Source of the DNA: an uncultured Saprospiraceae bacterium
Lineage (GTDB): Bacteria > Bacteroidota > Bacteroidia > Chitinophagales > Saprospiraceae
Direction of reading: 5' to 3'
NCBI GenBank assembly: GCA_964564545.1
Contig: CAZMBP010000028.1
Location: forward strand, 62,046-126,045
Length of the DNA: 64,000 bases
Below the pieces are notes generated by a model. The model was given only the letters and a program-made list of their open reading frames with translations. It was not told the DNA's origin and searched no databases. Positions 6,141-22,257 of the stretch are shown here, piece after piece. How positions within the stretch are numbered: position 1 is the stretch's first letter; each line of letters starts with the position of its first letter. A program made the translations under genes and the position numbers.

Positions 6141-9100
6141 ATGAAAAACTTTACAACCACTCTTACACTTTTGTTGGTTCTTATCAGCGGTAGTTTATTT
6201 GCACAAGTAAATTATACTGCCAAAGATCAAGTAACTACCTACAATGATGTATTCTTGTTTGGTTCCAATTTTGGATATAACCCACCTTGGCAAGATGAAG
6301 ATCTTGCAAATATTGCTGCTGGTAATCCTTCTTTGGGAATTGATGGAGTTGGAGTTAAATCCTCTCGCCCAACGCTTCCAGGATGGTTTATGGAAGAATA
6401 TGGTTATGACTTCCGATTGAATACTTATCAGCATTATGCAGACCTTGGATTAAGAGATAATGTATGTATCGTTGGCTTCCCTTCTGACGATCAAAAAGAA
6501 ACAGACCAACCTTGTCCTGGAATTCAGTCCGAAATGTTTGACAATTTATATACAGACATTTGGGATGGAGGCGCCAATGGAACTCCTTACAATGATGATA
6601 ATTACTATGCTGCTTATTTATACAAAACAGTATCGATGTATAAGCAACATGTAAAATTCTGGGAAATCTGGAATGAGCCGGGATTTGATTATAGTGGAAA
6701 TTGTGGCTGGAGAGAACCAGGTGATCCAGTTTGTAACTGGTGGGATAATGATCCAGATCCATGTATTAATAAATTACGTGCACCAATCCAACATTATGTT
6801 CGGACGCTTAGAATTTCTTGGGAAATTATTAAAACGCTTGATCCTGATGCTTATGTAATTGTTGCGGGCGTTGGGTTTCCTAGTTTTTTAGATGCAATTT
6901 TGAGAAATACTGACAATCCTGTAGATGGAAGTGTGACTGCTGATTATCCTCATGGTGGTGGTGCTTATTTTGATGTGATGGGTTTTCACTCATACACTCA
7001 TTTTGATGGAACAATGAAATATTGGGATAATAACTTAGGTCAATTTGTGTATGAAAGACATTCTGATAAAGGTGCAAGTGGTGTTTTAAGAAGACAAGAT
7101 CAATATCAAGATGTTTTAGATGTTTATGGTTTTGATGGAGTTACTTATCCTGAAAAAGAATGGATTATCACAGAGATCAATGGTCCAAGAAAACAATTCC
7201 AAGACTTCGTTGGATCAGAAGAATATCAAAGAAACTTCTTGTTAAAAGGTGCTGTGACTTGTATGAAAAATGACATCCGGGCAATGCACGTTTATAATTT
7301 AGCAGAAAGAAAAACTTACAATGAAGCAACTGGTGAATTTGACTTATTCGGCTTATATGAAAAAGTAAAAGACACTCAGCCTTACAATCAAGTGAAGACT
7401 GGAGAAGGCATTGCATACAAAACCATGTCAGATTTAATATTCGGTTCAACATATGATGCAACCCGAACAGCTCAATTAAATATGCCTCCCGAAGTTGATG
7501 GAGGTGCTTTTTTAGATACTGATGGAAATTACACTTACATCATGTGGGCAAAAACTACGGTTGATATGAGTGAGGTGGCCAATGCAACTTACTCTTTCCC
7601 TGCAAGTTTAAACATTAATTATTTAGAAGCTCGAAATTGGGAGTACTCCAGTACTTTCCAAAGTTCGCAAGTTGATCCAAGTAGTGTTGCCTTGACTGCT
7701 GAACCTACATTTTTTACAGAATCAATTTTCTCTACAGATATTTCTGCAGGCTGTGAACCTTTGACGGTAAATTTCCAAGAAAGATATGCAGGAACTGCAG
7801 CTAGTTACAACTGGACATTTGATGGAGGAATTCCTGCCACTTCTACTTCGGAAAATCCAACAATAGATTATGCCAATGCTGGAACATACGAATTCACTTT
7901 AGATGTTTTAGATGGCAATGGAGACACTTTAGCTACACAAACTTCATATGTTGTTGTAACAGCTCCACCTTCAGCTGACTTTTCATATACGCTTTCAGGA
8001 CCAATCATTGTTTTTGAAAATAACTCTTCAGCAAATACAGATACTTACAACTGGGTTTTTGGAGATGGAAACACAAGTACCGAGAGAGAACCTACTCATG
8101 TTTACAATACAAATGGAACTTATACCATTACAATGATTGCTTCGAATGGCTGTGGTGCAAGTACTCAAACTGCAACTATTACGATCAATACTTCTTCGAA
8201 TTTCCAAATTCCATATAATGCAAATACTGTTTTAGATCCTTATGATGGCCCTTTCCGCCCAGGTACCAACTTTGGATATAATCCACCATGGACTGACTTT
8301 AGTTTGGCAGATATTGCAGCAGGAAATCCGAGTTTGAATATCAAAGGTGTAGGTGTAAAAGCATCTCGACCTTCTCTTCCGGGTTGGTTTGTAAATGAAT
8401 ATGGTTATGAATTTAACTTACCAAATTACCAACACTATGATAATTTAGGTTTGGAAGAAAATGTATTAATTATTGGTTTCCCTGCTCCAGAAGAAAGAGA
8501 CCCAGCATACTATTGTGATGGAGTTCAATCTGAAATGTTTGCCAATATGTATTCTGATATTTGGGATGATGGAACTGATGGAACACCTTACAATGATGAG
8601 AATTATTTAGCTGCTTATTTATACAAAGTAGTTACGCTATATGGAGACAATGTTAGATTCTGGGAAATCTGGAACGAGCCAGGATTTGATTATACTGGAA
8701 ATTGTGGATGGAGAGAACCAGGTGATCCAGTTTGTAACTGGTGGGATCAAAATCCTGATCCTTGTGATTTCAAATTACGTGCTCCTATTATGCACTATGT
8801 TCGAATCTTGAGAATTAGTTATGAAATTATCAAAACGCTTCAACCTGACGATTACTTAGTAGTTGCTGGAGTTGGTTTCCCTAGTTACTTAGACGCAATT
8901 TTGAGAAATACCGATAACCCTGTGGACGGAAGTGTTACTGCTGATTATCCACTTGGCGGTGGTGCATATTTTGATGTGATGGGTTTCCATGCTTATCCTC
9001 ACTTCGATGGAACGATGCGATGGTGGGATAATTCCATTGGAGGTTTCCACTACGAAAGACACTCTGACCAAGCCATCACAGGTATTAAAAATCGTCAAAA

Positions 9101-12100
9101 CTTATATCAAGGCGTTTTGGAAAATTACGGCTACGATGGTGCAACTTATCCTAAAAAAGAATGGATCATTACCGAGAGTAATTTACCTAGAAGAGAGTTC
9201 CAAGATTTTATTGGAAATGAAGATGCTCAAATTAACTACATGGCAAAAGCTGTCGTGACTTGTTATAAAAATGCAATTCACCAGTTCCACGTTTACAATT
9301 TAGGCGAAGCCGAATTTATCAATAGTGCGACTCGTGAATTTGATGTAATGGGAATGTATCAAAAACTAATTGGACAACCTGAATATTCTCATGTTGTCAA
9401 CTTAGAAGGTATTTCTTATAAAACTGCTTCCGACATTTTGTTTGGAACTGAATATGATGAAGCCAAAACTAATGCAATGAATTTACCTCCTGAAATTGAT
9501 GGAGCTGCATTTGTTGACGCTGCTGGAAATTATTTATATGCGCTTTGGGCGATTACAACTGAAGATCAAAGTGAAGTGGCCAATGCAACTTACTCTTTCC
9601 CTGGCTCATTTAATATTTCAGATTTATATAAAAGAGAATGGGATTACTCAGAGACAGATTCGACTCAAACGATTAGTCCGAATAATGTAGCACTTACTGG
9701 TCGTCCAATTTATTTATTGGAAAATCAAACTACCATTGTAGTTCCAACAGCTACATTTTTCCCAGACAATAGTGTTGGCTGTGCACCACTTACAGTTACC
9801 TTCGACGATATGTCTCATGCCAATATTGATTCTTGGAGTTGGACTTTTACTGGTCCAAATGGATTTAATATGACTTCGACAGACCAAGAACCTTCGATTA
9901 CATTTAATGATCCAGGGACTTATACAGCTACACTTGAAGTAAGTAATGCAGCTGGTTCCAATACCACCTCCCAATTGATCCAAGTGGATGGTGCATTGAG
10001 TGCTGGATTTACTTATGTGATCAATGGGAACCAAGTTACCTTTACAAATACATCCGTCAATGCAACCCATTTTGCATGGGACTTTGGAGATTCTTCAGGT
10101 TTTACAGATCAAGAAAATCCAACTTATACATATGCTGGAGATGGATTGTACAATATTGGTTTATCAGCTTCCAATTCTTGTGATACAATAGTTGTTTCTC
10201 AAATTATTGAAATAGGAATAGGATCAGGAGTACCTCCTACTGCTAATTTTGCCACTAACTTATCTGCAGGATGTGGACCATTGACCATAAGCTATATTAA
10301 TCTTTCTTCAGATGCCACCAATTTCTTGTGGACTTTCCCTGGAGGAACACCTGCTAATTCTACTGAACAAAATCCAACAATAGTATATAATACTCCTGGA
10401 AATTATGATGTAACCCTAGAAGCATCAAATGCTTCAGGCACCACTACTTTTACTCAGACAGGCTTGATTAATGTGCTTGGACTTCCTTCGCCAAGTTATA
10501 CTTATGATTTAACCAACTCTCCAACTTTGAATTTCACCAATAACTCCCTGAACGGGATCAGTTATTATTGGGATTTTGGTGATGGAAATAATAGTCAGTT
10601 GCAAGATCCTGTTCATACGTATTCTGCAGGTGGAGCTTATACGGTTACCATGACTGCTGCCAACGGATGTGGTTCTGCATCATTTTCACAAATTGTGAAT
10701 ATCGATGCAAGTAACCTTCCTCCTACGGCTGGATTTACTTCTGATAATATTAATGGATGTGCTCCTATGGAAATTAATTTCATGGATAATTCAATCGGAG
10801 CAGAAAGTTGGAGCTGGACTTTCCCTGGAGGAACACCTGCTACTTCTACTGCACAAAATCCATCAGTTACTTATGATCTTGCTGGAACTTATGATGTTAC
10901 ATTAGAAGTCAGTAACACAAATGGAACCGATATTACGACAACGACATCATACATTACTATTCTAGAAGAACCTACATCTAACTATACATTTACTACACTA
11001 GATTCATTAGTTACTTTTACTAATTTAAGTAGTTCAAATTCATTTAACTATACTTGGAGTTTCGGGGATGGAACATATAGTAATGACGAAAATCCAACTC
11101 ACATTTATGGTGCTTCAGGAGTTTACGAAGTTACTCTTACAGCAACTAATGGCTGTGGTTCTCATTCTACAACTTTCTTTATTGATATTACAACAGGTTT
11201 AGGAAGTGCTCCTGCCGCTTCATTTACTTCAGATGTTAATTCAGGTTGTGGTCCATTAGAAGTTCAATTTACAGATCTTTCTGCAGGTGGGGCAACCTCT
11301 TGGAATTGGTCTTTCCCTGGAGCAATGCCTTCAACTTCTACTGACCAAAACCCAACTGTTACTTATCCAAATCAAGGTTCTTACACCGTGACTTTGGAAG
11401 TAAGTAATTCTTTTGGAAATGATATTGCTACTCAAGTCTCATACATCAATGTAGAAGGAAATCCAACTTCTGGTTTCTCTTCAACATTAAATGCATTGAT
11501 GGCAAACTTTAGTAATACTTCAACTGGAGCAACTTCTTACTCTTGGGATTTCGGTGATGGAAATACAAGTACCGAAGCTAACCCGATGCATACCTATGCA
11601 ACAGGAGGAGGATATACCGTAACACTTATCGCAACTAACGATTGTGGATCAACAACTTTTATAGATAATATTTCTTTTGCAAATCTTCCAGTAGCTGCTT
11701 TTGATTCAGATATCACTAGTGGTTGTGGTCCATTGGAAATCCAGTTTAATGATAACTCAACAAATGCAACAGATTGGAACTGGTCATTCCCAGGTGGAAC
11801 GCCAGCAACTTCTAATGTCGAAAATCCAATCGTAACGTACGATACTCCTGGAACTTACAATGTAACTTTAGTTGCCTCAAATTCTTCAGGCAGTAATACT
11901 AGTTCTCAAACTGCATACATCGAAGTCTTAAATAATGCAAACCCTTCATTTACCTCTACGACGAATGCATTGGTTGCAATGTTTACCAATACATCTACCT
12001 ATGCCACTTCATATCTTTGGGATTTTGGTGATGGAAATACATCGATGGGAACTGATCCAAATCATATTTATGCAGCCGATGGAACTTACACAGTTACCTT

Positions 12101-14834
12101 GACTGCAACTAATTCATGTGGTTCAGTAACTTCTACACAAGAGGTAACGGTCACAAGTTTACCTCTCGCTGGTTTCATTTCGAATGCAACAAATGGTTGT
12201 GCTCCTTTTGAAGTTCAATTCACAGATCAGTCTTCTGCCAATACAACAAGTTGGGCTTGGAGTTTCCCAGGAGGAACACCTGCTACCTCTACGGATCAAA
12301 ATCCAGTTATCACTTATAATGATGCTGGATCTTACGATGTCATTCTAGTAGCAACTAATGCAGCTGGAAATAGTACTCAAACTCAATTATCATACATCGC
12401 AGTTGCAACTACAGCAGATATTTCATTTGGAACTAATGTTACTAGTTTGACTGCAACATTTAATAATACTTCTACCAACGCAATTTCATACTTCTGGGAT
12501 TTCGGTGATGGAAATATAAGTACTGATGAAAATCCAATTCATGATTATGCTGCTAATGGAACTTACGTAGTTACCTTGACTGCAGCGAATGCATGTGGAT
12601 CAGTTTCAACAACTGAAACAATCGAAGTACAATACTCAGGTTCTGCGCCTTCGGCAAATTTCTCAGCAAATGTAACTTCTGGTTGTTCACCTATCACAGT
12701 TGAGTTTACTGATTTATCATCAGCTGATGCAACCATGTGGGAATGGAGTTTCCCTGGAGGAACACCTTCAACTTCTACGGATCAAAATCCAACCGTAACT
12801 TATGCGAATGCAGGAATGTACGATGTCGTTTTAGTAGTAAGTAACCCAGCTGGAAGTAATACTGCTTCCCAAACTTCATTGATTGTAGTTACTGCCGAAC
12901 CAGTTGCCAACTTTATCTCAGGTATAAATGGAAATACGATTTCCTTGACAAATACCTCTACCGGTGCAACTTCATACTCTTGGGACTTTGGTGATGGAAG
13001 TATGGTAAGTACTGATGAAAATCCAACTCATAACTATGCGATGGATGGAACATATACTGTTACTTTAACTGCAACTAATCCATGTGGAACGGTAACTACA
13101 ACTGAAACAATTACCATTACAACTGCTCCGAACGTTGCTTTCTCAGCAGACATCCTTTCAGGATGTACTCCTTTGGAAGTAAACTTTACGGATCAAAGTA
13201 CAGGTACTATTAGTAGTTGGTTATGGGAAATAACTGGAGCTACTCCTAGTAGTTCTACTGACCAAAATCCAACTTTCACATTCGATACTCCTGGAACTTA
13301 TGACGTGACGTTAACGGTAACTAATGCTTCAGGAAATTATCCAATTACTCAAACTTCATATATCGTAGTTGGAAGTACTCCAATTGCAGACTTTGATGTT
13401 AACTTCTCAGGAGGTGTTTATTCTTTTACCAACAACACAACAGGTGCGACTTCATACTCTTGGGATTTCGGTGATGGGAATATGAGTACAGATATGAACC
13501 CAACTCATACTTATACTACTGATGGAACTTTCGTGACAACATTAACTGCAACTAATGATTGTGGGTCAGTTACAACTACTCAAACAATTACAGTTACAAC
13601 TATACCTGTAGTTGCTTTCACAGCAGATGTAGTTTCTGGTTGTGCTCCATTAGTAGTTAACTTCATGGATGAAACAACAGGAACAGTTAATAGCTGGTCT
13701 TGGGAAATTCAAGGAGGTACACCAAATACTTCTACAGAACAAAACCCAACTGTTACCTTCGATACGCCTGGAACTTACGATGTGACTTTAACCGTAACTA
13801 ACCCTAACGGAAGTTACCCAATCACTCAAACTTCCATGATCGTTGTCGAAGCTACTCCATCCGCTGCCTTCGATGCGAACTTAAGTGGATCAGTTTATTC
13901 ATTTACAAATAACTCAACTGGAGCGACAAGTTACGTTTGGGACTTCGGAGATGGAAGTATGACCAGTACTGAAATGAATCCAACTCACTCTTACGCATTG
14001 AGTGGTTCATACACAGTTCAATTGATTTCAAATGGACCATGTGGTTCAGATACTACGGAATTATTGTTAGCAGTAGTAGCTGCCCCAATGGCGGCATTCA
14101 GTTCAGATACAACATTTGGATGTGCTCCTTTTACAGTTCAATTTACAGATGAGTCTGCTAATGCAACAGCTTGGAACTGGACATTCGATGGTGGTACTCC
14201 AAGTACCTCTACGGATCAAAATCCATTAATCACTTACGATACTCCTGGAACTTATGCAGTTACTTTAGATGCATCGAATAGTGTTGGCTCAGATAATATT
14301 TCCATCAATTCTTACATTGTGGTAGATGATGTACCAACTGCTTCCTTCTCAGCGAATGCAGATACTACTCATGTTGTATTTTTAAATACTTCAATGGGTG
14401 GAACTAACCCAACTTACTTATGGGACTTCGGTGATGGAAATACAAGTACGGAAGAAACTCCTACCCACGATTATGCAGGGGGAGGAACTTATACTGTAAC
14501 GCTAACTGTAACGAATGATTGTGGAACGGAAACTTTCGAAATGTCGATCGTCATCACAACTGCAACTAATGAAATTACTTTCTTAGAAGAATTTTTATTG
14601 TTCCCAAATCCAAATGATGGACAATTCACTATTGTCCTCAAAGGTGAGCCAAAAGATGATCTTCACATCAATTTGATAAATATTATCGGACAATACATTC
14701 ACAAAGAAGAAGTAGATTTCACTTCTGGTCAATTGACTAAAACGTTCAACTTTGATCGTTTACCGGTTGGAACTTACATTGTTGAGTTAAAGTCTAATCA
14801 ACAAGTTTCTTACAAAAAAGTAGTGATCGAATAA
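6141..14834 (+). CDS. Giant (2897 aa) T9SS-secreted protein: two clan GH-A-like TIM-barrel modules, 22 PKD domains and a T9SS CTD
   Basis: Signal peptide MKNFTTTLTLLLVLISGSLFAQ. FWEIWNEPG (acid/base-like NEP) and WIITE(I/S)N (nucleophile-like) each occur twice. There are 11 W.FPGGTP.TST.QNP.v.Y-type and 11 WDFGDGN.S....P.H.Y-type PKD units. The C-terminus reads FPNPNDGQFTIVL...VGTYIVELK...KKVVIE. Confidence 0.9.
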   Translation: MKNFTTTLTLLLVLISGSLFAQVNYTAKDQVTTYNDVFLFGSNFGYNPPWQDEDLANIAAGNPSLGIDGVGVKSSRPTLPGWFMEEYGYDFRLNTYQHYADLGLRDNVCIVGFPSDDQKETDQPCPGIQSEMFDNLYTDIWDGGANGTPYNDDNYYAAYLYKTVSMYKQHVKFWEIWNEPGFDYSGNCGWREPGDPVCNWWDNDPDPCINKLRAPIQHYVRTLRISWEIIKTLDPDAYVIVAGVGFPSFLDAILRNTDNPVDGSVTADYPHGGGAYFDVMGFHSYTHFDGTMKYWDNNLGQFVYERHSDKGASGVLRRQDQYQDVLDVYGFDGVTYPEKEWIITEINGPRKQFQDFVGSEEYQRNFLLKGAVTCMKNDIRAMHVYNLAERKTYNEATGEFDLFGLYEKVKDTQPYNQVKTGEGIAYKTMSDLIFGSTYDATRTAQLNMPPEVDGGAFLDTDGNYTYIMWAKTTVDMSEVANATYSFPASLNINYLEARNWEYSSTFQSSQVDPSSVALTAEPTFFTESIFSTDISAGCEPLTVNFQERYAGTAASYNWTFDGGIPATSTSENPTIDYANAGTYEFTLDVLDGNGDTLATQTSYVVVTAPPSADFSYTLSGPIIVFENNSSANTDTYNWVFGDGNTSTEREPTHVYNTNGTYTITMIASNGCGASTQTATITINTSSNFQIPYNANTVLDPYDGPFRPGTNFGYNPPWTDFSLADIAAGNPSLNIKGVGVKASRPSLPGWFVNEYGYEFNLPNYQHYDNLGLEENVLIIGFPAPEERDPAYYCDGVQSEMFANMYSDIWDDGTDGTPYNDENYLAAYLYKVVTLYGDNVRFWEIWNEPGFDYTGNCGWREPGDPVCNWWDQNPDPCDFKLRAPIMHYVRILRISYEIIKTLQPDDYLVVAGVGFPSYLDAILRNTDNPVDGSVTADYPLGGGAYFDVMGFHAYPHFDGTMRWWDNSIGGFHYERHSDQAITGIKNRQNLYQGVLENYGYDGATYPKKEWIITESNLPRREFQDFIGNEDAQINYMAKAVVTCYKNAIHQFHVYNLGEAEFINSATREFDVMGMYQKLIGQPEYSHVVNLEGISYKTASDILFGTEYDEAKTNAMNLPPEIDGAAFVDAAGNYLYALWAITTEDQSEVANATYSFPGSFNISDLYKREWDYSETDSTQTISPNNVALTGRPIYLLENQTTIVVPTATFFPDNSVGCAPLTVTFDDMSHANIDSWSWTFTGPNGFNMTSTDQEPSITFNDPGTYTATLEVSNAAGSNTTSQLIQVDGALSAGFTYVINGNQVTFTNTSVNATHFAWDFGDSSGFTDQENPTYTYAGDGLYNIGLSASNSCDTIVVSQIIEIGIGSGVPPTANFATNLSAGCGPLTISYINLSSDATNFLWTFPGGTPANSTEQNPTIVYNTPGNYDVTLEASNASGTTTFTQTGLINVLGLPSPSYTYDLTNSPTLNFTNNSLNGISYYWDFGDGNNSQLQDPVHTYSAGGAYTVTMTAANGCGSASFSQIVNIDASNLPPTAGFTSDNINGCAPMEINFMDNSIGAESWSWTFPGGTPATSTAQNPSVTYDLAGTYDVTLEVSNTNGTDITTTTSYITILEEPTSNYTFTTLDSLVTFTNLSSSNSFNYTWSFGDGTYSNDENPTHIYGASGVYEVTLTATNGCGSHSTTFFIDITTGLGSAPAASFTSDVNSGCGPLEVQFTDLSAGGATSWNWSFPGAMPSTSTDQNPTVTYPNQGSYTVTLEVSNSFGNDIATQVSYINVEGNPTSGFSSTLNALMANFSNTSTGATSYSWDFGDGNTSTEANPMHTYATGGGYTVTLIATNDCGSTTFIDNISFANLPVAAFDSDITSGCGPLEIQFNDNSTNATDWNWSFPGGTPATSNVENPIVTYDTPGTYNVTLVASNSSGSNTSSQTAYIEVLNNANPSFTSTTNALVAMFTNTSTYATSYLWDFGDGNTSMGTDPNHIYAADGTYTVTLTATNSCGSVTSTQEVTVTSLPLAGFISNATNGCAPFEVQFTDQSSANTTSWAWSFPGGTPATSTDQNPVITYNDAGSYDVILVATNAAGNSTQTQLSYIAVATTADISFGTNVTSLTATFNNTSTNAISYFWDFGDGNISTDENPIHDYAANGTYVVTLTAANACGSVSTTETIEVQYSGSAPSANFSANVTSGCSPITVEFTDLSSADATMWEWSFPGGTPSTSTDQNPTVTYANAGMYDVVLVVSNPAGSNTASQTSLIVVTAEPVANFISGINGNTISLTNTSTGATSYSWDFGDGSMVSTDENPTHNYAMDGTYTVTLTATNPCGTVTTTETITITTAPNVAFSADILSGCTPLEVNFTDQSTGTISSWLWEITGATPSSSTDQNPTFTFDTPGTYDVTLTVTNASGNYPITQTSYIVVGSTPIADFDVNFSGGVYSFTNNTTGATSYSWDFGDGNMSTDMNPTHTYTTDGTFVTTLTATNDCGSVTTTQTITVTTIPVVAFTADVVSGCAPLVVNFMDETTGTVNSWSWEIQGGTPNTSTEQNPTVTFDTPGTYDVTLTVTNPNGSYPITQTSMIVVEATPSAAFDANLSGSVYSFTNNSTGATSYVWDFGDGSMTSTEMNPTHSYALSGSYTVQLISNGPCGSDTTELLLAVVAAPMAAFSSDTTFGCAPFTVQFTDESANATAWNWTFDGGTPSTSTDQNPLITYDTPGTYAVTLDASNSVGSDNISINSYIVVDDVPTASFSANADTTHVVFLNTSMGGTNPTYLWDFGDGNTSTEETPTHDYAGGGTYTVTLTVTNDCGTETFEMSIVITTATNEITFLEEFLLFPNPNDGQFTIVLKGEPKDDLHINLINIIGQYIHKEEVDFTSGQLTKTFNFDRLPVGTYIVELKSNQQVSYKKVVIE
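6204..10235 (+). repeat. Tandem duplication of a ~2.0-kb module (GH-A-like domain + PKD-A + PKD-B) inside the giant CDS
   Basis: The FWEIWNEP codons at 6657 and 8658 are exactly 2001 nt (667 codons) apart. The two copies are collinear at protein level, with patches of near-identical DNA. Confidence 0.85.
9745..14570 (+). repeat. In-frame tandem array of alternating PKD-A/PKD-B pairs, period about 475-490 nt
   Basis: A-type unit starts (F..D...GC.P) lie near 9757, 10247, 10733, 11222, 11700, 12175, 12660, 13140, 13618 and 14097. Confidence 0.85.
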
Positions 14835-15583: not shown

Positions 15584-16678
15584 ATGTCAAAAAAAACTAC
15601 CTACTCAGAAGCTAACATCCAAACTCTAGATTGGAAAGATCATATTCGCCTACGGGCTGGAATGTACATTGGATCAGTAGATGCAAAAGGGTTTATGCTT
15701 ATGCTAAAAACTATTTTTTCAAACAGTTTTAGTATCTCAATGGCCGACTATTTCATAATTGAATTTCGAGGAAATCGTTCTGCTAGCTTTATTTTCAAAA
15801 ATATGAAACGAGCACATTTAGACTCTTGGGCAACTGATACATTTAACTCGCGTTATGCCAACCATCATCTATCACTTCCTGTACTAAACGCTTTAAGCTC
15901 AGAATTCAACATTAAGTTTTTAGATAAAAAAGGAAATCAAATAGTTGAGCAGAAATTTGAAAAAGGAGAAGTAAAAAAAGGGGAAGTTGAAAATAAAAAG
16001 TTGAATTGTCTTTCTGTTGAAATTGACTTTAAATTAGATGATGAAATTTGGGGAAATAATCTCGAATGGAATACAAATTATATTATTCATCAAATCAAAG
16101 ATTTTGCTTACCTCTACAAAAATGTAAAATTTGAAATCATATATAAATTAGATAAAGAACCTTGTCGAATCATTTATCACTTTAAACATGGATTGAAGGA
16201 TCGAATTGATATTGAAAGACTTAACGGACTCATTCGCAGTCAATTGCCTATTTACTTTGAAAAAGAATTTGATACTTTTTCAATAGAGTTAGCATTTGCC
16301 TTTAGCAGTTATTCCATAGATGCTCCCTTCTTAAAATCTTACGCCAATGACTTACTTACGCATCTAGGAGGTACACATGTCAAAAGTTTAATAACAGGAA
16401 TAAGAATGGCTCTTAAAAAATATGTCCATGAAAAAAAGTTGAAAAAGAAATATAATTTTTCAAAAAAGAAAATCACTCGCAATTTAATTGCAGCAATAAA
16501 TTTAAGAATGCAATCTGCTATTTATTCAGGCTGTACTCGAAATAAATTAGGTAACCAAGAAATTATAAAACCTCTTTCAAGTTATATCTCAGAAACTTTG
16601 TTTGACCAACTTAAGACTAATGAAGAAGAGGCTCAAAGATTACTTAGTGACTTTGAAGTCAGAGAGAGATATTATTAA
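15584..16678 (+). CDS. GyrB/ParE N-terminal (GHKL + transducer)-like protein, apparently catalytically degenerate, with no TOPRIM domain
   Basis: YSEANIQTLDWKDHIRLRAGMYIGS matches the GyrB N-terminus. GGTHVKSLITGIRMALKKY and NLIAAINLRMQSAIYSGCTRNKLGN match the transducer region. The ATP-site residues are substituted. Confidence 0.6.
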   Translation: MSKKTTYSEANIQTLDWKDHIRLRAGMYIGSVDAKGFMLMLKTIFSNSFSISMADYFIIEFRGNRSASFIFKNMKRAHLDSWATDTFNSRYANHHLSLPVLNALSSEFNIKFLDKKGNQIVEQKFEKGEVKKGEVENKKLNCLSVEIDFKLDDEIWGNNLEWNTNYIIHQIKDFAYLYKNVKFEIIYKLDKEPCRIIYHFKHGLKDRIDIERLNGLIRSQLPIYFEKEFDTFSIELAFAFSSYSIDAPFLKSYANDLLTHLGGTHVKSLITGIRMALKKYVHEKKLKKKYNFSKKKITRNLIAAINLRMQSAIYSGCTRNKLGNQEIIKPLSSYISETLFDQLKTNEEEAQRLLSDFEVRERYY

Positions 16679-16745: not shown

Positions 16746-17747
16746 CTATCCTGGATCAGACTCTGCCCCACTCTCATGTCCAACCAATCCTCTAAATGCA
16801 TCTCTCACCGTACTTCCTTCATTAATCACTTTATACATTTCTTCAGTAATTGGCATTTCTACATTATATTGATGCGCTAATTCTCTAACAACTCCACAGG
16901 TTTTTACACCTTCTGCCACCATTGACATTTCATCAATTATTTCTTTAAGAGTTCTCCCTTGCCCTAAGTGATAGCCTACCGTTCGATTTCGACTTTGCGT
17001 ACTACTACAAGTTGCCACCAAGTCACCCATTCCTGCTAGACCTGCAAAAGTCAACGGATCACCACCCATCGCAACACCCAAACGAGTCAACTCTGCCAAA
17101 CCTCTTGTAATGATAGCAGCACGAGTATTATCTCCTGCACCTGTCCCATCACCCATTCCAGCAGCTATGGCAATTACATTTTTCAATGCGCCTCCTAGCT
17201 CACAGCCAACTACATCTACATTAGTATAAACTCGAAATAGACCAGTACTAAAAACCTTTTTCAATTCATTAGCCATCGAATCGTCGACCATCGCAATTAC
17301 ACTTGCCGCAGCTTGCCCAGCCATAATTTCCCTTGCCAAATTCGGCCCAGTCAAAACGCCCGCAGGATGTCCAGGCATAACCGTTTCGATGATTTCAGTC
17401 ATTCGCATTTTGGTCCCTTGCTCTAATCCTTTGGATAAACTTATTATTGGAATCCAAGGTCGAATATATGGTTTCGCATCTTCAAGTACCCTACGAAAAC
17501 TTTGAGAAGGAACTCCCATCACTAAAACGTCTGCATCATAAATAGCTTCCTCAATGGAGTTAGTTGCAACGAGTGAAGGAGTCAAATCTGCTCCTGGAAG
17601 ATATTTTTCATTACGATGATTATTATTAATATCATCGACTGTAGCTTGGTTCCGAGCCCACATTTTCACAGGTCTTTTTCTGGCGATCATAGAAGCTACT
17701 GTTGTTCCCCATGATCCTCCTCCTAGGAGTCCGATTTTTAAATCCAT
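16746..17747 (-). CDS. gpsA: NAD(P)H-dependent glycerol-3-phosphate dehydrogenase
   Basis: Motifs GGGSWGTT (Rossmann), SLSKGLE, GPNLAREI, GALKNVIAIAAG and STQSRNR. From memory, the overall sequence looks closest to actinobacterial GpsA. Confidence 0.9.
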   Translation of the reverse strand: MDLKIGLLGGGSWGTTVASMIARKRPVKMWARNQATVDDINNNHRNEKYLPGADLTPSLVATNSIEEAIYDADVLVMGVPSQSFRRVLEDAKPYIRPWIPIISLSKGLEQGTKMRMTEIIETVMPGHPAGVLTGPNLAREIMAGQAAASVIAMVDDSMANELKKVFSTGLFRVYTNVDVVGCELGGALKNVIAIAAGMGDGTGAGDNTRAAIITRGLAELTRLGVAMGGDPLTFAGLAGMGDLVATCSSTQSRNRTVGYHLGQGRTLKEIIDEMSMVAEGVKTCGVVRELAHQYNVEMPITEEMYKVINEGSTVRDAFRGLVGHESGAESDPG

Positions 17748-17778
17748 AGTTTTTGATTTGGTTATGATTGTTTCGTTT

Positions 17779-20700
17779 CTACTTTTCTTTCGGTTTTAAC
17801 GTAACTGCTTTTCCATTCGATTTTGCTTTAGGCAATTTCTTTTTCGGAATTTCTTGTCCCAATTCTATTAAGAATTCATTTCTTATTTTTTCAATATTTC
17901 TATCCATATTCCTTTTAGTCCATCGCTTTGTCGAAACTGGCGGAAGTACTTTTATCTCAATAGCTGCTGCGCGGAAAAGTGCTCCACCTTTTGGCATGGC
18001 ATCAGCTGCGTTTCTCAAAATAATTGGAATAATCGGAACTCCTGCTTGCATCGCTAAATGGAAAGCACCTTTTTTAAATGAGCCTAAAGTTTTGTCTTTA
18101 CTTCGGGTTCCTTCTGGGAAAATGATAATAGAGGTTCCACTTTGCAATGCATCCACCGCTGGCTTCATTGCTTCAATTGCTTTTTCTTTATCTTTTCGGT
18201 CTATAAAAATCACTCCTGATGCTGCCATTAATTGGCCAATGATTGGCATGGATTTCAATTCCTTTTTAGCAATTCCAACCGCATTTTTTCGAATCAATTT
18301 TGCAGCGACAAACATATCCACACTACTTTGGTGATTGAAAATAAAAACTGCTGGTCGTTGTTCCCAAAGATACTCTTGACCTTTGACTGCCAATTCTAAT
18401 CCTGCCATTCGAACTACCAAGTCACCCACCGTAGCCATCATTGAGTTGACTCCATCTGTCCAAGACATATGCATGGCACCTGAAGCAACTCCATTAATTA
18501 CTGCTGGAACTAAACTTCCCAAAGCCAAACCTGTCCGAACAAAATTTGAAAGTCCCGGACGTTTCTCATTATTGAGTCGATAAACGATCCAATCATTTTG
18601 GTAAGCCAAAGCAGAAAGCTTTGTGTCAGGATTCATTGGTCGTGGATTCCCAACTATTTCAAGTAATGGTAAATCCTCTGCACTATCTGTATAGAAAAAA
18701 CTTTTCTTCAAATCAAGATTATATTCTTTAGCTAACTCCTTAGCCGCATGTGCTTTTCCTTCTCCCCAACAAGCTGGCTCAATAATATTACCCGTAAATA
18801 CTCCATCTTTCACTTCCATGAAAGTACACATCACATGCTCAATATTTAAGTCGCGTGCAATTGGATTAACTTGATATGGAGTAGCAGCTGAGATTATTGC
18901 AACTGTATGTCCTTTAGCTAAATGAGCCGCAACCAATGCCCTTGCTTCTGGATAAATTTCATGAGCTAAATGTTCATGATAAACATCCTCTCCTACTTCG
19001 ATAAAAGTTTTTTCCTCCACGCCTTTTACACCTTGTGCTCCCATTGCAGCAAGTCCTGCAAAGTTTCCATTCCCCATCGCATAAACCATCACTCCTGCAA
19101 ATTGAGCAACTACTTCACGAGTAGTAATTCGTCCACTAAGCACTTTGGTTTGGAAAAATTCTTTGGCAGAAAAACCTTTAATTAAAGTTCTATCCAAATC
19201 GAAAAATGCTCCAATGTGAGAACCACCTTCTCCTTCCATAACTGGACGAGTAAATGCTTCTGTCTTCGAACCTGGAACAATGTCTCGCTCAATCGGAACT
19301 ATTTCATGAGGATCATTATGATGAGTTAAAGTAAACCCTTGTAAAGTTTTAATTCGATCTGCAACATCGTTGAGTTGATCTAAGAATTTTTTAAGTGCTT
19401 CTTTTTTATCATTGTCAGGTGTAGGTATTAATCCTAAATTTTTCACCAAACGGATACCATTGATTAAGAATGGTTTTGAAACAGATTCCACTCGTTGAAT
19501 CCGCCCTTGCCAATGCATCTCTTCACTAACAAACAAACAATCATTGATAAATTTTTCCTCATCAAAAACTCGTCGTGGTCGGGTACTTTGCAATGCATAA
19601 ACTACAACTCGATATGCTTCCACATAACTATGTAAAACTACTGGCGCAACAATCACTTTCTCTTTTTCCAAAAACGAAATAGCTCCAGATTTAGTTTGCC
19701 GGATTAATTTTTCCCATTTTGGATCTAACACTTCGAGGTTCAATTCTATTTCATCAGAGAATTGAGATTTTTTAGAATAGAAAAATTCGAATTTAAATAA
19801 CTGTCGCAATTCCATGATTTCTTTCCAAAAAGTTTCCTCTCTATCTGCAGGTTTCGCTTCTGATGATTCTAAAAGTGCCAACTCAATAAATGCCCGTTGG
19901 TACAAATGATGCACCGACATATTTGCATAGTAAGTTGCTTCCAAGTAATTTTCAGAAACGATGACATATTTAGCATGAAGCGCATCACCATGTTGCAAGA
20001 CGAGTTTCGAACGAATCAATAAATTTAAAGCAGTCTGTACACTTTCTCCAATTGGTATCCCTCTATCAACTAAAGCATCTGGGTTTCGTTTTTCGATTAA
20101 TTCCATCAATCGAATTACATCATTTTCGATAGCAATTTTAGTCAACGAAAATCTACTTAACAGCGCAATGCAAATCAAAGAAGAAGTCGTTACAGGAGTG
20201 ATCTGATTAATCTTATGAACAAGTTCTAAAGCAAATCTTGGCAACTCTCCAGAGTATCCTTCCACGCCGTTTCCTTCTGTAATAATTGCTACAGAATTAT
20301 CTTTTTGCACATCAACAGGTTCCCCAAAACGCAAAGAAATTTTTCCAAAGTTATTTCCCATCTTCTTGATGTAGTTCATAAACCACATCAAACTTTCAGG
20401 AGCTTTTTTACTTCGTCTCCATTGCATCGTCATGTCCTTTACATCTGGAATCAAATCGTAGACAATCGAAACTGGAATATATTTTACTTCTTTCGTTGAT
20501 TGCTCTTCCGCTTCTTTGATATATTTTAAAATCCCCACTTTTGGCCAAACTAACTTCCCCGTTCTCGATCGAGTTCCTTCGATTGCCCACATGAAATGAG
20601 CATTATCATTAACCAATGAAGCGATAAAATGTCGCAAAGTTGCCTTGTAAATTTCATTGTCTTTAAATGATCTTCGAATAAAGATCACTCCATTTTGTCT

Positions 20701-20985
20701 GCCCAATTGATTGAGCCCCATAAATGCCATATTGATTCCTGCAAAAGTGAACGGCAATGGAATACCATGCCGAGTAAGCACTACTGCCAGCACCATCATA
20801 TCAATGTAAGTCTTATGAGTCATCACGAAGGCAATCGGATGCTTACGAGCAATTTTGCTCAACTTTTTTATTTCGGTAGGATGTACATCAATTGATTTTT
20901 TGTAACCACGGGAAAGAATGTATTGCGAAAATTCCATTCCCATCACATTTGCAACAGGACTATGTTGCGTATACAACTCCTTCAT
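17779..20985 (-). CDS. Tri-domain fusion: PlsB-like glycerol-3-phosphate acyltransferase + HAD-IB (SerB-like) phosphatase domain + PlsC-like 1-acyl-G3P acyltransferase
   Basis: The N-terminal domain has H57KTYID62 (HX4D) and AIEGTRSRTG. The middle domain has FFDLDRTL (aa 594-601), IISAATP and FYTDSAEDLPLL. The C-terminal domain has NHQSSVD (aa 884-890) and FPEGTRS (aa 956-962). The gene ends 31 nt upstream of gpsA on the same strand. Confidence 0.8.
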   Translation of the reverse strand: MKELYTQHSPVANVMGMEFSQYILSRGYKKSIDVHPTEIKKLSKIARKHPIAFVMTHKTYIDMMVLAVVLTRHGIPLPFTFAGINMAFMGLNQLGRQNGVIFIRRSFKDNEIYKATLRHFIASLVNDNAHFMWAIEGTRSRTGKLVWPKVGILKYIKEAEEQSTKEVKYIPVSIVYDLIPDVKDMTMQWRRSKKAPESLMWFMNYIKKMGNNFGKISLRFGEPVDVQKDNSVAIITEGNGVEGYSGELPRFALELVHKINQITPVTTSSLICIALLSRFSLTKIAIENDVIRLMELIEKRNPDALVDRGIPIGESVQTALNLLIRSKLVLQHGDALHAKYVIVSENYLEATYYANMSVHHLYQRAFIELALLESSEAKPADREETFWKEIMELRQLFKFEFFYSKKSQFSDEIELNLEVLDPKWEKLIRQTKSGAISFLEKEKVIVAPVVLHSYVEAYRVVVYALQSTRPRRVFDEEKFINDCLFVSEEMHWQGRIQRVESVSKPFLINGIRLVKNLGLIPTPDNDKKEALKKFLDQLNDVADRIKTLQGFTLTHHNDPHEIVPIERDIVPGSKTEAFTRPVMEGEGGSHIGAFFDLDRTLIKGFSAKEFFQTKVLSGRITTREVVAQFAGVMVYAMGNGNFAGLAAMGAQGVKGVEEKTFIEVGEDVYHEHLAHEIYPEARALVAAHLAKGHTVAIISAATPYQVNPIARDLNIEHVMCTFMEVKDGVFTGNIIEPACWGEGKAHAAKELAKEYNLDLKKSFFYTDSAEDLPLLEIVGNPRPMNPDTKLSALAYQNDWIVYRLNNEKRPGLSNFVRTGLALGSLVPAVINGVASGAMHMSWTDGVNSMMATVGDLVVRMAGLELAVKGQEYLWEQRPAVFIFNHQSSVDMFVAAKLIRKNAVGIAKKELKSMPIIGQLMAASGVIFIDRKDKEKAIEAMKPAVDALQSGTSIIIFPEGTRSKDKTLGSFKKGAFHLAMQAGVPIIPIILRNAADAMPKGGALFRAAAIEIKVLPPVSTKRWTKRNMDRNIEKIRNEFLIELGQEIPKKKLPKAKSNGKAVTLKPKEK

Positions 20986-21374
20986 GTACTCAGTCGCTTT
21001 AGCATAAGCCTCCTCAAACGACTCGCCATTCCTCTCTGCGATTAGAACTAATTTTTTTTTGAAATTTTGAATCTCTTAGAATGTTTTCCATCAACATTAT
21101 GTGTAGGGTTTTATTTTTATATCGGTCTATTTTCTCACCAAAAATTTTAAGTTAAACAAGATAGTAAATCAAAATTACACCTCCATAAAATTCCGGTAAA
21201 CTTTGACTTTTAAACTAAAATCAACCTATGTTGTTACTTCAAATAGCGTTCTAAAGGCATTCTTAAAAACAATTATTGTTTTTTTATATCTGAAAAAAAA
21301 GTACCTTTAACACTCAAACTATATTCAAAAAATAAAATCAACTCGAAGTTTTTTTATCTAAAACGTCCATTTCA

Positions 21375-22196
21375 TTGGAGTATTGGGTAAAAAGTCTTCT
21401 TAATCTAGCTGTAATGCCAAATAATACTGAACTACGCAAAATAACGAAACCCTCGCTGTTTTGGCTGGCAACTGAGCCAGTACGTGCAGCATCCGAATTA
21501 GGGATTTCTCTACCTTATCGCAAGTTTTTTCATAAAAATTATAAAGGAGATGGTCATCCAGTACTCGTTTTGCCTGGTTTCATGGCAAGCGATACTTCCA
21601 CTAATCCACTTCGAAAATTTATCGAAAAACTAGGTTACAATGCCTACGCTTGGGAATTGGGTCGAAATACTGCAAAACTCGAAATGCTAGATGTTTTAAT
21701 GGATAAATTGGAAGATATTTATCATGAAACAGGGCAAGAAGTTACTATTATTGGATGGAGTTTAGGAGGAGTCTACGCTCGCCAAATGGCTAAGGAAAAA
21801 CCAGATATGGTTCGACAAGTCGTTACTTTGGGTTCTCCATTCGCAGGAATTACTGAACCCAATAATGCTACTTGGATGTACAACATTGTTTCCAATGGAA
21901 AACGTGTGGTTGATCTTGATCCTGAACTGTTAGCTGATTTACCAAAACCAGCACCAGTTCCAACTACTGCGATTTATACTAAAGAAGATGGAGTGGTCTC
22001 TTGGGAAGTTTGTATGGAATTAGAAGAAACTTCCATCCATCAAAATATTCAAGTATATGGAAGTCATTTAGGATTGGGAGTTAATGTTTCGGTTCTAAAT
22101 ATCATTGCAGATCGGTTGATGTATTATAAAGAAGAGTGGGTTCATTTTGAGCCGCAATCTGCTGCTAAAGATTTGATATTTTATCCTTCTATGTGA
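21375..22196 (+). CDS. Alpha/beta hydrolase (lipase/esterase-like)
   Basis: Nucleophile elbow GWSLGG and a preceding LPGFMASD segment. The start is TTG at 21375, with an alternative ATG at 21414. Confidence 0.65.
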   Translation: MEYWVKSLLNLAVMPNNTELRKITKPSLFWLATEPVRAASELGISLPYRKFFHKNYKGDGHPVLVLPGFMASDTSTNPLRKFIEKLGYNAYAWELGRNTAKLEMLDVLMDKLEDIYHETGQEVTIIGWSLGGVYARQMAKEKPDMVRQVVTLGSPFAGITEPNNATWMYNIVSNGKRVVDLDPELLADLPKPAPVPTTAIYTKEDGVVSWEVCMELEETSIHQNIQVYGSHLGLGVNVSVLNIIADRLMYYKEEWVHFEPQSAAKDLIFYPSM

Positions 22197-22221: not shown

Positions 22222-22257
22222 AAAATCCCATCAACCTTTCGATTGATGGGATTTTTT
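22222..22257 (+). terminator. Rho-independent terminator
   Basis: aaaatcccatcaa / ttgatgggatttt (13 bp) followed by a T-run. Confidence 0.7.

Follow-up and report, generated by a model that had tools for sequence, protein, structure and literature searches.

Within the window, by which we mean the whole 64-kb stretch of DNA analyzed, a minus-strand gene is predicted from its sequence to encode a single polypeptide that joins a short PlsB-type GPAT core, a HAD-IB phosphatase and a PlsC-type AGPAT. It is flanked by gpsA and by a divergently transcribed hydrolase gene, and further genes of the same set lie elsewhere in the window (Table 1).

Table 1 Features of the fusion locus and of the linked genes in the window
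Feature	Position	Strand	Basis
Called ORF of the GPAT-HAD-AGPAT fusion, 1068 aa	17779-20985	-	ORF list; Pfam and NCBIfam; AF2 and Foldseek; homologues
Displaced 5' end of the fusion gene, other frame, switch at an A9 run	20986-21097	-	Three-frame translations compared with homologues
Short PlsB-type GPAT region, aa 1-555, including helical GPAT_C	19321-20985	-	NF002886; PF19277; Foldseek
HAD-IB phosphatase domain, aa 590-800	18586-19218	-	TIGR01490; Foldseek 3fvv; residue conservation
Three predicted helices before the AGPAT core, aa 811-860, moderately hydrophobic	18406-18555	-	AF2 secondary structure; hydropathy
PlsC-type AGPAT core, aa 862-1044	17854-18402	-	TIGR00530; Foldseek 5kym
gpsA, 333 aa	16746-17747	-	NF009098, 503.9 against a cut-off of 436
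Divergent lipase-fold alpha/beta hydrolase	21375-22196	+	Weak Pfam Palm_thioest and PGAP1; Foldseek; triad
Strong bidirectional hairpin terminator closing the hydrolase gene	22222-22255		Terminator scan, 15-pair stem
BTAD-domain protein, SARP-like putative regulator of the set	41060-41881	-	PF03704 BTAD
Conserved K/E-rich protein, 176 aa, member of the gene set	41947-42477	-	Identity to neighbor proteins in relatives
WS/DGAT with C-terminal SCP2 domain, final acyltransferase of the set	42717-44543	+	TIGR02946; PF03007; PF06974; PF02036

Curated models cover all three domains of the fusion, and two of them score above their cut-offs. The original prediction placed an acyltransferase at the N terminus, and this region indeed matches the PlsB2-type model NF002886 (aa 1-549, E = 2.8e-133), aligning only from model position 221 and scoring below the model cut-off, as well as PF19277 GPAT_C (aa 193-520, 185.6 bits). 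The PlsB equivalog model TIGR03703 gives a score of 160, far below its cut-off of 618.5. Matches to TIGR01490 (HAD-IB; aa 593-790, 176.8 bits against a cut-off of 98.3) and TIGR00530 (AGPAT; aa 862-990, 145.7 bits against 102.95), together with a PF01553 match in two stretches of the protein, bear out the proposed arrangement of two acyltransferase signatures with a HAD-IB domain between them on one chain. No lipin or PAP2 family appeared in the Pfam and NCBIfam scans of the fusion protein.

The GPAT region carries the motifs VMTHKTYID (HX4D), GVIFIRR, EGTRSRTG and YIPVSIVYD, the AGPAT carries NHQSSVD, GVIFIDR, FPEGTRS and VPIIPI, and in the HAD domain motifs II-IV line up with the catalytic SerB residues. 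Several residues are invariant among fused proteins that are 38-89% identical: D62, G137, R139, S140 and R141 in the GPAT; D596, D598, S699, K744, D767 and D771, the catalytic residues of the HAD domain; and H885, D890 and P957-S962 in the AGPAT. The motifs quoted in the original prediction are kept in 119/119 full-length homologues, and DSxxD in 118/119. In the AF2 model (pLDDT 81.8, pTM 0.78), the GPAT region resembles human GPAT1 (8e4y; E = 2e-18, TMt 0.68), the HAD domain resembles the HAD-IB protein 3fvv (TMt 0.87), and the AGPAT resembles T. maritima PlsC (5kym; TMt 0.76), the last match covering ~243 columns. Hydropathy maxima fall at aa 820-838 and 849-867, with every averaging window at or below 1.6; by analogy with the N-terminal helices of PlsC, the helices at aa 811-860 may form an interfacial membrane or lipid-droplet anchor.

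Compared with the homologues P0002 and P0005, the called ORF lacks ~37 N-terminal residues, which are encoded upstream in another frame. Translated from ATG 21097 (or 21091), this displaced 5' end reads MLMENILRDSKFQKK. Homologues of the fusion are ~1080-1105 aa long versus the 1068 aa called here. In a DNA alignment the frame switch coincides with a run of nine A (21052-21060) that is A8 in the closest relative (L004). The N-terminal truncation results from a one-base indel in this run, and because of the frameshift the fusion copy in this genome could be impaired.

The gap between the fusion and gpsA (17748-17778) is only 31 nt, and no terminator was found in it by the terminator scan. GpsA belongs to a distinct subfamily, scoring above the cut-off of NF009098, and GpsA proteins of this type are also encoded beside HAD-AGPAT genes in other phyla. 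At 24/24 Flavobacteriaceae-type and 15/35 Saprospiraceae-type loci, gpsA lies directly 3' of the fusion. Given the short gap, the lack of a terminator hit and the invariable order at the Flavobacteriaceae-type loci, co-transcription of the two genes is plausible. On the other side, the original prediction of a lipase-like hydrolase transcribed divergently from 21375 is right as to direction and fold, but the gene most likely starts at ATG 21414, giving 260 aa. The protein has a GWSLG nucleophile elbow and an invariant Ser-Asp-His triad (S116, D192 and H218), and in Foldseek it is most similar to B. subtilis LipA and a rumen lipase. Its orthologues adjoin the fusion at 16/19 Saprospiraceae-type and 18/18 Flavobacteriaceae-type loci.

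A conserved set of neutral-lipid (Kennedy pathway) genes comprises the fusion, gpsA and genes for a WS/DGAT-SCP2 protein, one or two hydrolases, a small protein without a family match and a SARP-like regulator. In this window it is divided: the WS/DGAT part lies at 41-44.5 kb, with the WS/DGAT gene ~22 kb from the fusion. The WS/DGAT scores 445.8 with TIGR02946 (cut-off 309.95) and contains HHVAIDG at aa 152. Its orthologues lie no more than 6-10 kb from the fusion at 14/19 Saprospiraceae-type loci and at 18/18 Flavobacteriaceae-type loci, the latter count being limited to the 18 loci with 4.5-kb flanks; each of the 18 has WS/DGAT, gpsA and two hydrolases alongside the fusion. In Polaribacter filamentus, seven genes of the set form one tight array on the same strand. 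The 176-aa protein, for which the Pfam and NCBIfam search returned no family, is 44% identical to the protein that follows gpsA in a Polaribacter locus (L070) and 62% identical to the WS/DGAT neighbor in L001. The BTAD protein has a weak match to the N terminus of AfsR (E = 1e-5) and 61% identity to the last gene product of the Polaribacter array. At some loci (e.g., L003, L050 and L054), the fusion has no WS/DGAT, gpsA or hydrolase nearby. No PlsX, PlsY or PlsC gene was found within the 64-kb window. An 'AGPAT/hydrolase' beside WS/DGAT-SCP2 in Bacteroidota was noted earlier (PMC10351704). Only ~3% of Bacteroidota genomes contain WS/DGAT (PMC10351704), which marks the set as accessory and not housekeeping.

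Single-ORF orthologues of the fusion occur in Saprospiraceae, Chitinophagales, Microscillaceae and many Flavobacteriaceae, including the cultured genera Polaribacter, Tenacibaculum and Bizionia. The homologues comprise >120 full-length clusters, and the fusion is found in dozens of Bacteroidota species from several families, with identity roughly tracking taxonomy. The putative storage-fat gene set is common to many marine Bacteroidota, and its fusion protein is poorly annotated. The fused proteins form a monophyletic clade and therefore derive from one old fusion event. Neighboring plsB-like and HAD-plsC genes of Actinobacteria are collinear with the fusion, and in Nocardioides and a Propionibacteriales MAG they share a reading frame, with nothing but TGA and 3 nt between them, so the idea that the protein is a Rosetta-stone fusion of such a split pair holds.

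The fusion and gpsA could be read on their own as a two-gene pathway that makes phosphatidate from DHAP for membrane phospholipids, recently acquired from Actinobacteria and with a side role for the HAD domain. The position of gpsA, the mycobacterial-type PlsB2 model as the best GPAT model, the collinear actinobacterial pairs and the slightly higher GC of the block than of its flanks are consistent with this reading. The original prediction was correct that gpsA follows on the same strand and that the 16.7-21.0 kb block is somewhat GC-rich (0.377 for the fusion and 0.426 for gpsA against a gene mean of 0.350), but the excess does not support a recent transfer: it comes from the first and second codon positions, GC3 is unremarkable (z = +0.5 and +0.3), and codon usage does not stand out from the rest of the window, its RSCU distance (0.56) being one of the lowest there. 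Among split relatives, those nearest to the GPAT part are from Gammaproteobacteria and those nearest to the HAD-AGPAT part from Myxococcota/Deltaproteobacteria, whereas the actinobacterial versions, 29-43% identical, are more distant than any other split relative examined. With the fusion also widespread in Bacteroidota as one clade, a recent import from Actinobacteria is not supported. The predicted two-gene route to membrane phosphatidate fares no better, given the consistent linkage to WS/DGAT and lipase-fold hydrolases and the accessory character of the set, and we regard this reading as very unlikely.

Instead, the fusion and its gene set probably lead from glycerol-3-phosphate through lysophosphatidate (LPA) and phosphatidate to diacylglycerol destined for storage as triacylglycerol, and the phosphatidate phosphatase is probably the HAD domain. 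Starting from the observed domain identities, intact catalytic residues, fusion monophyly and gene linkage, we infer the enzymatic activities, the HAD substrate and the final product as follows. GpsA would supply glycerol-3-phosphate, which the N-terminal domain of the fusion would acylate to LPA; the C-terminal domain would acylate LPA to phosphatidate, and the central HAD domain would dephosphorylate this to diacylglycerol. The WS/DGAT would then form triacylglycerol for storage, and the lipase-fold hydrolases would mobilize the stored lipid. The role of the HAD domain, which the original prediction had also suggested and which fits the gene-set context, is assigned because the other Kennedy steps are all represented and no other phosphatidate phosphatase (e.g., PAP2) was matched among the neighboring ORFs scanned in the window and in the Polaribacter array. 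We found no report in the literature of triacylglycerol accumulation in genera that carry the cluster.

Two other outcomes are conceivable. The HAD domain might act on LPA, giving monoacylglycerol as in plant sn-2 GPAT4/6, on another phosphoester or on an unrelated small molecule. The phosphatase domain of plant GPAT4/6 reportedly dephosphorylates LPA, some WS/DGAT enzymes also acylate monoacylglycerol, and, among HAD relatives whose substrates are known, the nearest are phosphoserine and histidinol-phosphate phosphatases rather than lipid phosphatases and use small soluble molecules. Nevertheless, because the second acyltransferase is a covalently attached AGPAT with intact motifs, phosphatidate is the expected intermediate; no other phosphatase for it was matched among the cluster ORFs scanned, and the pTM of the model suggests a fixed three-domain assembly, which together make a different HAD substrate rather unlikely. 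The end product might also be something other than storage triacylglycerol, namely wax or other esters made by WS/DGAT-SCP2, or diacylglycerol destined for phosphorus-free membrane lipids. Although WS/DGAT enzymes accept varied substrates, the SCP2 domain hints at unusual lipids as ligands (PMC10351704) and the fusion occurs without WS/DGAT at some loci, the arrays examined show no linked gene for a fatty acyl-CoA reductase or a glycosyltransferase, the supply of glycerol backbone through gpsA is tightly linked, and the co-encoded lipase-fold hydrolases are typical of storage-lipid turnover. We therefore consider such products quite improbable.

The proposed triacylglycerol route has a counterpart in the Kennedy operon of Actinobacteria such as Rhodococcus jostii RHA1 and Mycobacterium, which comprises WS/DGAT (atf9, Rv2484c), plsC (HAD-AGPAT, Rv2483c) and plsB2 (Rv2482c). 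The two systems share a PlsB-type GPAT with GPAT_C, a HAD domain N-terminal to an AGPAT, and WS/DGAT. They differ in that the actinobacterial GPAT and HAD-AGPAT are separate genes, their order in M. tuberculosis being, as we take it from the Rv numbering, opposite to that in the fusion; that PlsB2 has ~220 additional N-terminal residues; and that neither an SCP2 domain on WS/DGAT nor gpsA is reported there. For the atf9-plsB-plsC(HAD) operon of rhodococci and mycobacteria, the HAD domain has already been proposed to be an alternative phosphatidate phosphatase (PMC4850399). Acylation of glycerol-3-phosphate and 2-acyl-LPA by PlsB2 has been shown biochemically, and the activity of Rv2483c is described as 'not confirmed' (PMC10593935).

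The closest relatives of the separate parts are unfused genes in Woeseiaceae-type gammaproteobacterial and myxobacterial/deltaproteobacterial clusters, where a short PlsB (579-601 aa) is 35-38% identical and the HAD-AGPAT 50-54% identical to the corresponding regions. The HAD-AGPAT gene is often followed by a gpsA 60% identical to the one here, and WS/DGAT and Hydrolase_4 genes are neighbors (also PMC10351704). One gammaproteobacterial-type MAG has HAD-AGPAT, short PlsB, WS/DGAT and Hydrolase_4 together; separate HAD-AGPAT and PlsB genes follow each other in that order in L085, and the short PlsB is solitary in Lentisalinibacter (L084). E. coli PlsB, T. maritima PlsC and human GPAT1 have the four acyltransferase motifs and folds in common with the fusion, which, unlike E. 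coli PlsB, lacks the PlsB N-terminal region and is covalently linked to a phosphatase and another acyltransferase. Plant sn-2 GPAT4/6 reportedly also place a HAD-type phosphatase N-terminal to a PlsC-type acyltransferase in one chain, a likeness of architecture; they have one acyltransferase and no PlsB-type domain and make monoacylglycerol for cutin. The phosphatase domain of the fusion is of the HAD-IB type (TIGR01490), unlike the lipin/Pah1 and PAP2 families, but a HAD fold acting on phosphatidate has precedent, since lipin/Pah1 enzymes are Mg2+-dependent phosphatidate phosphatases of the HAD superfamily with a DxDxT motif (reviewed in PMC7600782).

All three ORFs of the original prediction, gpsA, a 1068-aa ORF with GPAT, HAD and AGPAT parts (the fusion) and a divergent hydrolase ORF, are present at the positions it gave. 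The two PF01553 stretches expected in the fusion were both found with Pfam, and its N-terminal region, for which an acyltransferase had been proposed, is matched by PF01553, PF19277 and NF002886 as well as by the GPAT1 fold. PF19277 (GPAT_C) scores 185.6 bits (cut-off 25) over residues 193–520. The NCBIfam PlsB2-type model NF002886 aligns to residues 1–549 (E 2.8e-133, model positions 221–771 only), and the scores lie below the equivalog cut-offs for PlsB2 and PlsB (NF002886, 446 vs 721; TIGR03703, 160 vs 618.5). Judged by its sequence, the fusion is a member of the broad PlsB family and not an orthologue of PlsB or PlsB2. The HAD-IB model TIGR01490 matches residues 593–790 over model positions 2–202 of 202 (176.8 vs a cut-off of 98.3), and the AGPAT model TIGR00530 matches residues 862–990 (145.7 vs 102.95).

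In 119/119 full-length homologues, each of the three centres has its catalytic motifs, including GPAT acyltransferase motifs I–IV (VMTHKTYID, with HX4D; GVIFIRR; EGTRSRTG; YIPVSIVYD), and DSxxD is found in 118/119. In an alignment spanning 38–89% identity, the catalytic motifs of GPAT, HAD and AGPAT are all invariant, among them HAD residues D596, D598, S699, K744, D767 and D771 and the AGPAT motifs NHQSSVD and FPEGTRS. The predicted placement of the catalytic aspartates is correct: D596 and D598 follow strand 1 of the HAD core, and motifs II–IV (S699, K744, D767, D771) are aligned with the SerB catalytic residues. AlphaFold2, run on the full-length protein with 91 homologues, gave a model with a mean pLDDT of 81.8 and a pTM of 0.78; in it, the HAD motifs are located at strand ends and five helices (residues 607–690) separate motifs I and II, as in a Rossmannoid core with a helical C1 cap. 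With Foldseek, the model matches human GPAT1 (8e4y; E 2e-18, 596 columns, TM 0.68 on the target), the HAD-IB protein 3fvv (TMt 0.87) and T. maritima PlsC (5kym; TMt 0.76). Transmembrane anchoring is unsupported, all 19-residue hydropathy windows being ≤1.6. Three moderately hydrophobic helices (residues 811–860) precede the AGPAT core, where PlsC carries its interfacial anchor. From the position of these helices and the lack of a clear transmembrane helix, we infer that the fusion is probably a peripheral protein on the membrane or a lipid droplet.

Homologues of the fusion are ~1080–1105 aa long and have the N-terminus MENILRDSKFQKKLVLIAE. In the window copy, the matching N-terminus is divided between two frames at a minus-strand run of nine A residues, which places the true 5' end of the gene slightly beyond this run. 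L004, at 89% identity the closest relative, has A8 at this position; with A9, the ~37 codons at the start of the fusion gene are out of frame in the window. The A9 run may reflect an assembly error, an actual truncation of the product or transcriptional slippage at this site. The public annotation of the window genome carries the 1068-aa product. For the hydrolase, nearly all homologues are ~260 aa long and start at the equivalent of an internal ATG, so that the TTG-initiated ORF probably includes 13 surplus codons and the protein is probably 260 aa. Scans for sigma-70 promoters and for the Bacteroidota-type pattern (TTTG...TAnnTTTG) yielded no more matches than expected by chance.

The fusion sits in a gene set that is conserved across relatives. 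In Polaribacter filamentus, seven genes form one tight same-strand array, in the order WS/DGAT with a C-terminal SCP2 domain, a Hydrolase_4-type alpha/beta hydrolase, the orthologue of the window hydrolase, the fusion, gpsA, a 170-aa protein with no family match and a BTAD-domain protein. Our neighbourhood census comprised 83 loci, with presence counts taken from loci with 4.5-kb flanks. WS/DGAT, both hydrolases and gpsA occur in 18/18 Flavobacteriaceae-type loci with such flanks, and gpsA is directly downstream of the fusion in 24/24. Saprospiraceae-type loci have WS/DGAT in 14/19 and the hydrolase in 16/19, with gpsA directly downstream in 15/35. Across these two main groups, WS/DGAT, GPAT and HAD-AGPAT are encoded adjacently in 32/37 Bacteroidota loci with 4.5-kb flanks. 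The proposed operon of gpsA with the fusion holds up as plausible, both from the 31-nt gap that separates gpsA from the upstream fusion in the ORF list and from its invariable position in the Flavobacteriaceae-type loci. In the window, the two halves of the gene set are 22 kb apart.

Coordinates of features in the window and in related loci (L-numbers)
Feature	Sequence	Position	Strand	Size	Remarks
Large repeat ORF	window	6141–14834	+	2897 aa	From translation only: ~650-aa N-terminal module x2, ~20 PKD-like repeats, C-terminal sorting-type tail
GyrB/ParE-like ORF	window	15584–16678	+	364 aa	Sole match: central DNA_gyraseB domain (aa 220–356)
gpsA	window	16746–17747	-		NF009098, 503.9 vs equivalog cut-off 436; PF01210 and PF07479
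Fusion	window	17779–20985	-	1068 aa	GPAT, HAD-IB and AGPAT
N-terminus in two frames	window	20986–21097	-		
A9 run	window	21052–21060	-		
True 5' end of fusion gene	window	near 21091–21097	-		
Hydrolase ORF	window	21375–22196	+		TTG-initiated; excess probably 21375–21413, start probably ATG 21414
BTAD protein	window	41060–41881	-	~270 aa	Weak SARP/AfsR-like match
Small K/E-rich protein	window	41947–42477	-	~170 aa	No family match
Small protein and BTAD pair	window	41060–42477	-		
Small protein and BTAD pair	L070 (Polaribacter)	10149–11472			
Small protein and BTAD pair	L001	17055–18391			
WS/DGAT-SCP2	window	42717–44543			TIGR02946, 445.8 vs cut-off 309.95; HHVAIDG (HHxxxDG active site) at aa 152
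DDE transposase	L070 (Polaribacter)	11850–12893			
In-frame junction	L067 (actinobacterial)	7597–7608			
In-frame junction	L072 (actinobacterial)	3171–3182			
In-frame junction	L081 (actinobacterial)	7714–7758			

The GpsAs encoded in the clusters of Polaribacter (499.7) and of a non-Bacteroidota MAG (509.4) are, like that of the window, above the NF009098 cut-off; one particular GpsA subfamily thus accompanies these genes. The Ser-Asp-His triad of the window hydrolase is invariant, and the hydrolase fold most resembles that of minimal lipases, for example B. subtilis LipA. In Saprospiraceae as well as Flavobacteriaceae, the genes for the small K/E-rich protein and the BTAD protein are found with either WS/DGAT or gpsA. 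The small protein may be a partner of the regulator or be associated with lipid droplets. Directly 3' of the Polaribacter array is a DDE transposase gene, which hints that the neutral-lipid cluster is mobilisable. Elsewhere in the window is a large ORF with PKD-like repeats. Because the DNA_gyraseB domain is the only match in the 364-aa ORF, with no recognisable ATPase or Toprim domain, this ORF is a putative truncated or divergent GyrB/ParE-like paralogue.

The fused gene is widespread. More than 120 protein clusters in a large protein database match over the full length at 63–96% identity, and the names on them, where given, are Saprospiraceae, Phaeodactylibacter, Chitinophagales and Microscillaceae. 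Searched exhaustively, the 50%-identity representatives include fused proteins down to 39% identity, below which the matches split into HAD-AGPAT (~475–510 aa) and PlsB-like (~580–800 aa) proteins. At least 589 loci matched in a scan of species-representative genomes, and the gene is fused in 74 of the best 80. Among these best 80 loci, identity to the window protein is 56–89% in Saprospiraceae and relatives, 59–63% in Microscillaceae and 46–51% in many Flavobacteriaceae genera. Cultured Flavobacteriaceae carriers include Polaribacter filamentus, Tenacibaculum aquimarinum, Bizionia arctica, Patiriisocius marinus and Psychroserpens.

The fused gene is also carried by three Chloroflexota-binned contigs with a GC content of 46–50% (L035, L038 and L076, one of them Promineifilaceae), so that either the contigs are mis-binned or the fusion has spread from one phylum to another. 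Two of the three are placed close to the base of the fused clade together with P0122, a fused protein of 1014 aa in which Pro replaces the HX4D histidine (VLTPKSYLD) and YLRS replaces FIRR in the GPAT domain, with the HAD and AGPAT motifs retained. In this lineage, the GPAT half is possibly degenerate. Three other deep-branching fused representatives (P0124, P0125 and P0128; 39–43% identity) are rich in N, K and I and have low-complexity N-terminal extensions, e.g., repeated KKSDENE.

A block richer in GC than its surroundings with an actinobacterial-looking GpsA, as originally described, could point to a recently acquired island. We rejected recent transfer on per-gene GC, GC1–3 and synonymous codons, the extra GC being confined to codon positions 1 and 2. 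Relative to the window genes, the fusion has a GC of 0.377 (z +1.0) and a GC3 of 0.285 (z +0.5), and its synonymous-codon distance of 0.56 is among the lowest in the window; gpsA has a GC of 0.426, with the excess from codon positions 1 and 2, and a GC3 of 0.276 (z +0.3). The genes flanking the block are ordinary Bacteroidota chromosomal genes, e.g., those for a T9SS cargo protein, SmpB, iPGM and a TonB receptor. We also rejected Actinobacteria as the nearest source, as they are far from the fused clade in domain-wise tblastn searches and neighbour-joining (NJ) trees. Actinobacterial versions are 29–30% identical in the GPAT part and 34–43% in the HAD and AGPAT parts. The nearest HAD-AGPAT proteins (50–54% identical) come from Myxococcales and Deltaproteobacteria MAGs, and the nearest short PlsB proteins (~35–38% identical) are gammaproteobacterial (Lentisalinibacter, Woeseiaceae, Lysobacterales), that of Lentisalinibacter being a stand-alone gene. 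Ordinary codon usage and GC3, together with the distance of Actinobacteria from the fused clade, thus contradict a recent actinobacterial island.

The trees, simple NJ on Kimura distances and not maximum-likelihood, were built separately for the GPAT and HAD-AGPAT regions. Initially, monophyly of the fused proteins had bootstrap values of 1/100 and 0/100, owing to two 'split' sequences that we left out of the final trees as probable fragments: P0133, a truncated fused gene on a 2.2-kb contig, and P0136, of uncertain completeness. After their removal, the fused clade is monophyletic with bootstrap values of 95/100 (GPAT) and 81/100 (HAD-AT), and 100/100 replicates recover the named Flavobacteriaceae genera as a single clade. 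This grouping of the fused proteins indicates a single old fusion, which would have been followed by largely lineage-consistent descent. Two loci labelled Saprospiraceae (L036 and L061) have a Flavobacteriaceae-like same-strand array in which, however, the hydrolase follows gpsA; in the trees, L036 clusters with Flavobacteriaceae. Either mislabelling or within-phylum transfer would explain them. The notion of a Rosetta-stone fusion was borne out, in that the plsB-like and HAD-plsC genes of Nocardioides and a Propionibacteriales MAG are arranged collinearly with the fusion and share one reading frame, the spacer between them being only TGA plus 3 nt. In Nocardia niwae, the spacer is 39 nt and likewise in frame. 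A single point mutation at such junctions would be predicted to recreate a fusion. Junction sites in three actinobacterial genomes are listed in the table.

The original prediction had the fusion and gpsA as a two-gene unit leading to phosphatidate; in light of the WS/DGAT-linked context, the probable role is better described as the synthesis of storage lipid than as that of membrane phosphatidate. No plsX, plsY or plsC was found within the 64-kb window. GpsA, GPAT, AGPAT and WS/DGAT give the Kennedy-pathway steps an obvious enzyme in the gene set, with the exception of phosphatidate dephosphorylation; neither PAP2 nor any other phosphatidate phosphatase was matched near the fusion, among the window neighbours or in the Polaribacter array. 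A HAD phosphatase domain with intact catalytic residues is joined covalently between two acyltransferases expected to make phosphatidate. The suggestion that this domain is a candidate phosphatidate phosphatase therefore gains from context, namely the WS/DGAT linkage and a cluster that holds no alternative.

On these grounds we infer the enzymatic activities, the HAD substrate and the product of the gene set. The most economical reading is that one polypeptide would carry glycerol 3-phosphate to diacylglycerol: the N-terminal GPAT would form lysophosphatidate (LPA), the AGPAT domain would convert LPA to phosphatidate (PA), and the central HAD domain would dephosphorylate PA to diacylglycerol (DAG), from which WS/DGAT would then form triacylglycerol (TAG), with the hydrolases serving lipid turnover. 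More tentatively, the fusion might be a self-contained 'diacylglycerol synthase' of GPAT, AGPAT and HAD PA phosphatase, in which intermediates pass between fixed active sites along an insulated storage route. If so, abundant marine Bacteroidota (Polaribacter, Tenacibaculum, Muricauda, Saprospiraceae) would gain a storage-lipid route insulated from PlsX/PlsY/PlsC membrane synthesis, and, by Rosetta-stone logic, the HAD domain of actinobacterial PlsC-like proteins, e.g., Rv2483c, would be the long-sought PA phosphatase for TAG.

By placing the candidate phosphatase between the two acyltransferases that would make its presumed substrate, the fusion provides strong guilt-by-fusion evidence on which enzyme dephosphorylates PA in bacterial TAG synthesis; a single recombinant protein offers an assay of all three activities. 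The gene set further implies that many marine Bacteroidota could store neutral lipid, among them bloom-responsive Flavobacteriaceae that are in culture and tractable, a capacity barely documented for Bacteroidota and one that bears on ocean carbon cycling. This widespread and mis-annotated family thus offers a handle on both bacterial phosphatidate phosphatase and neutral-lipid storage in marine Bacteroidota.

HAD-type phosphatidate phosphatase candidates for bacterial TAG synthesis date from 2016 (PMC4850399), when Amara et al. described an operon whose PlsC is an AGPAT-HAD fusion, its HAD domain being proposed as an alternative phosphatidate phosphatase. Mycobacteria have a conserved version of this operon (Rv2483c) (PMC4850399). 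Angala et al. characterised PlsB2 (Rv2482c) and listed the activity of Rv2483c as unconfirmed (PMC10593935). The only paper found to mention the fusion says of AGPAT-HAD proteins of this type that their role 'remains to be elucidated', and in the relevant passages the fusion is termed AGPAT/hydrolase with no mention of an N-terminal GPAT half (PMC10351704). Public records name it 'HAD-IB family hydrolase' or 'phosphoserine phosphatase/AGPAT'. Because these records and passages name only the phosphatase or hydrolase and AGPAT, the GPAT half has been overlooked. We found no description in the literature of a three-domain (trifunctional) GPAT-HAD-AGPAT enzyme, and no report of TAG accumulation in the carrier genera. 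With the AGPAT-HAD operon already published, the fusion family is therefore a more fused form of a known, still hypothetical system and not a new kind of system. A gammaproteobacterial-type MAG carries the same toolkit unfused, as Hydrolase_4, HAD-AGPAT, short PlsB, WS/DGAT and a second Hydrolase_4.
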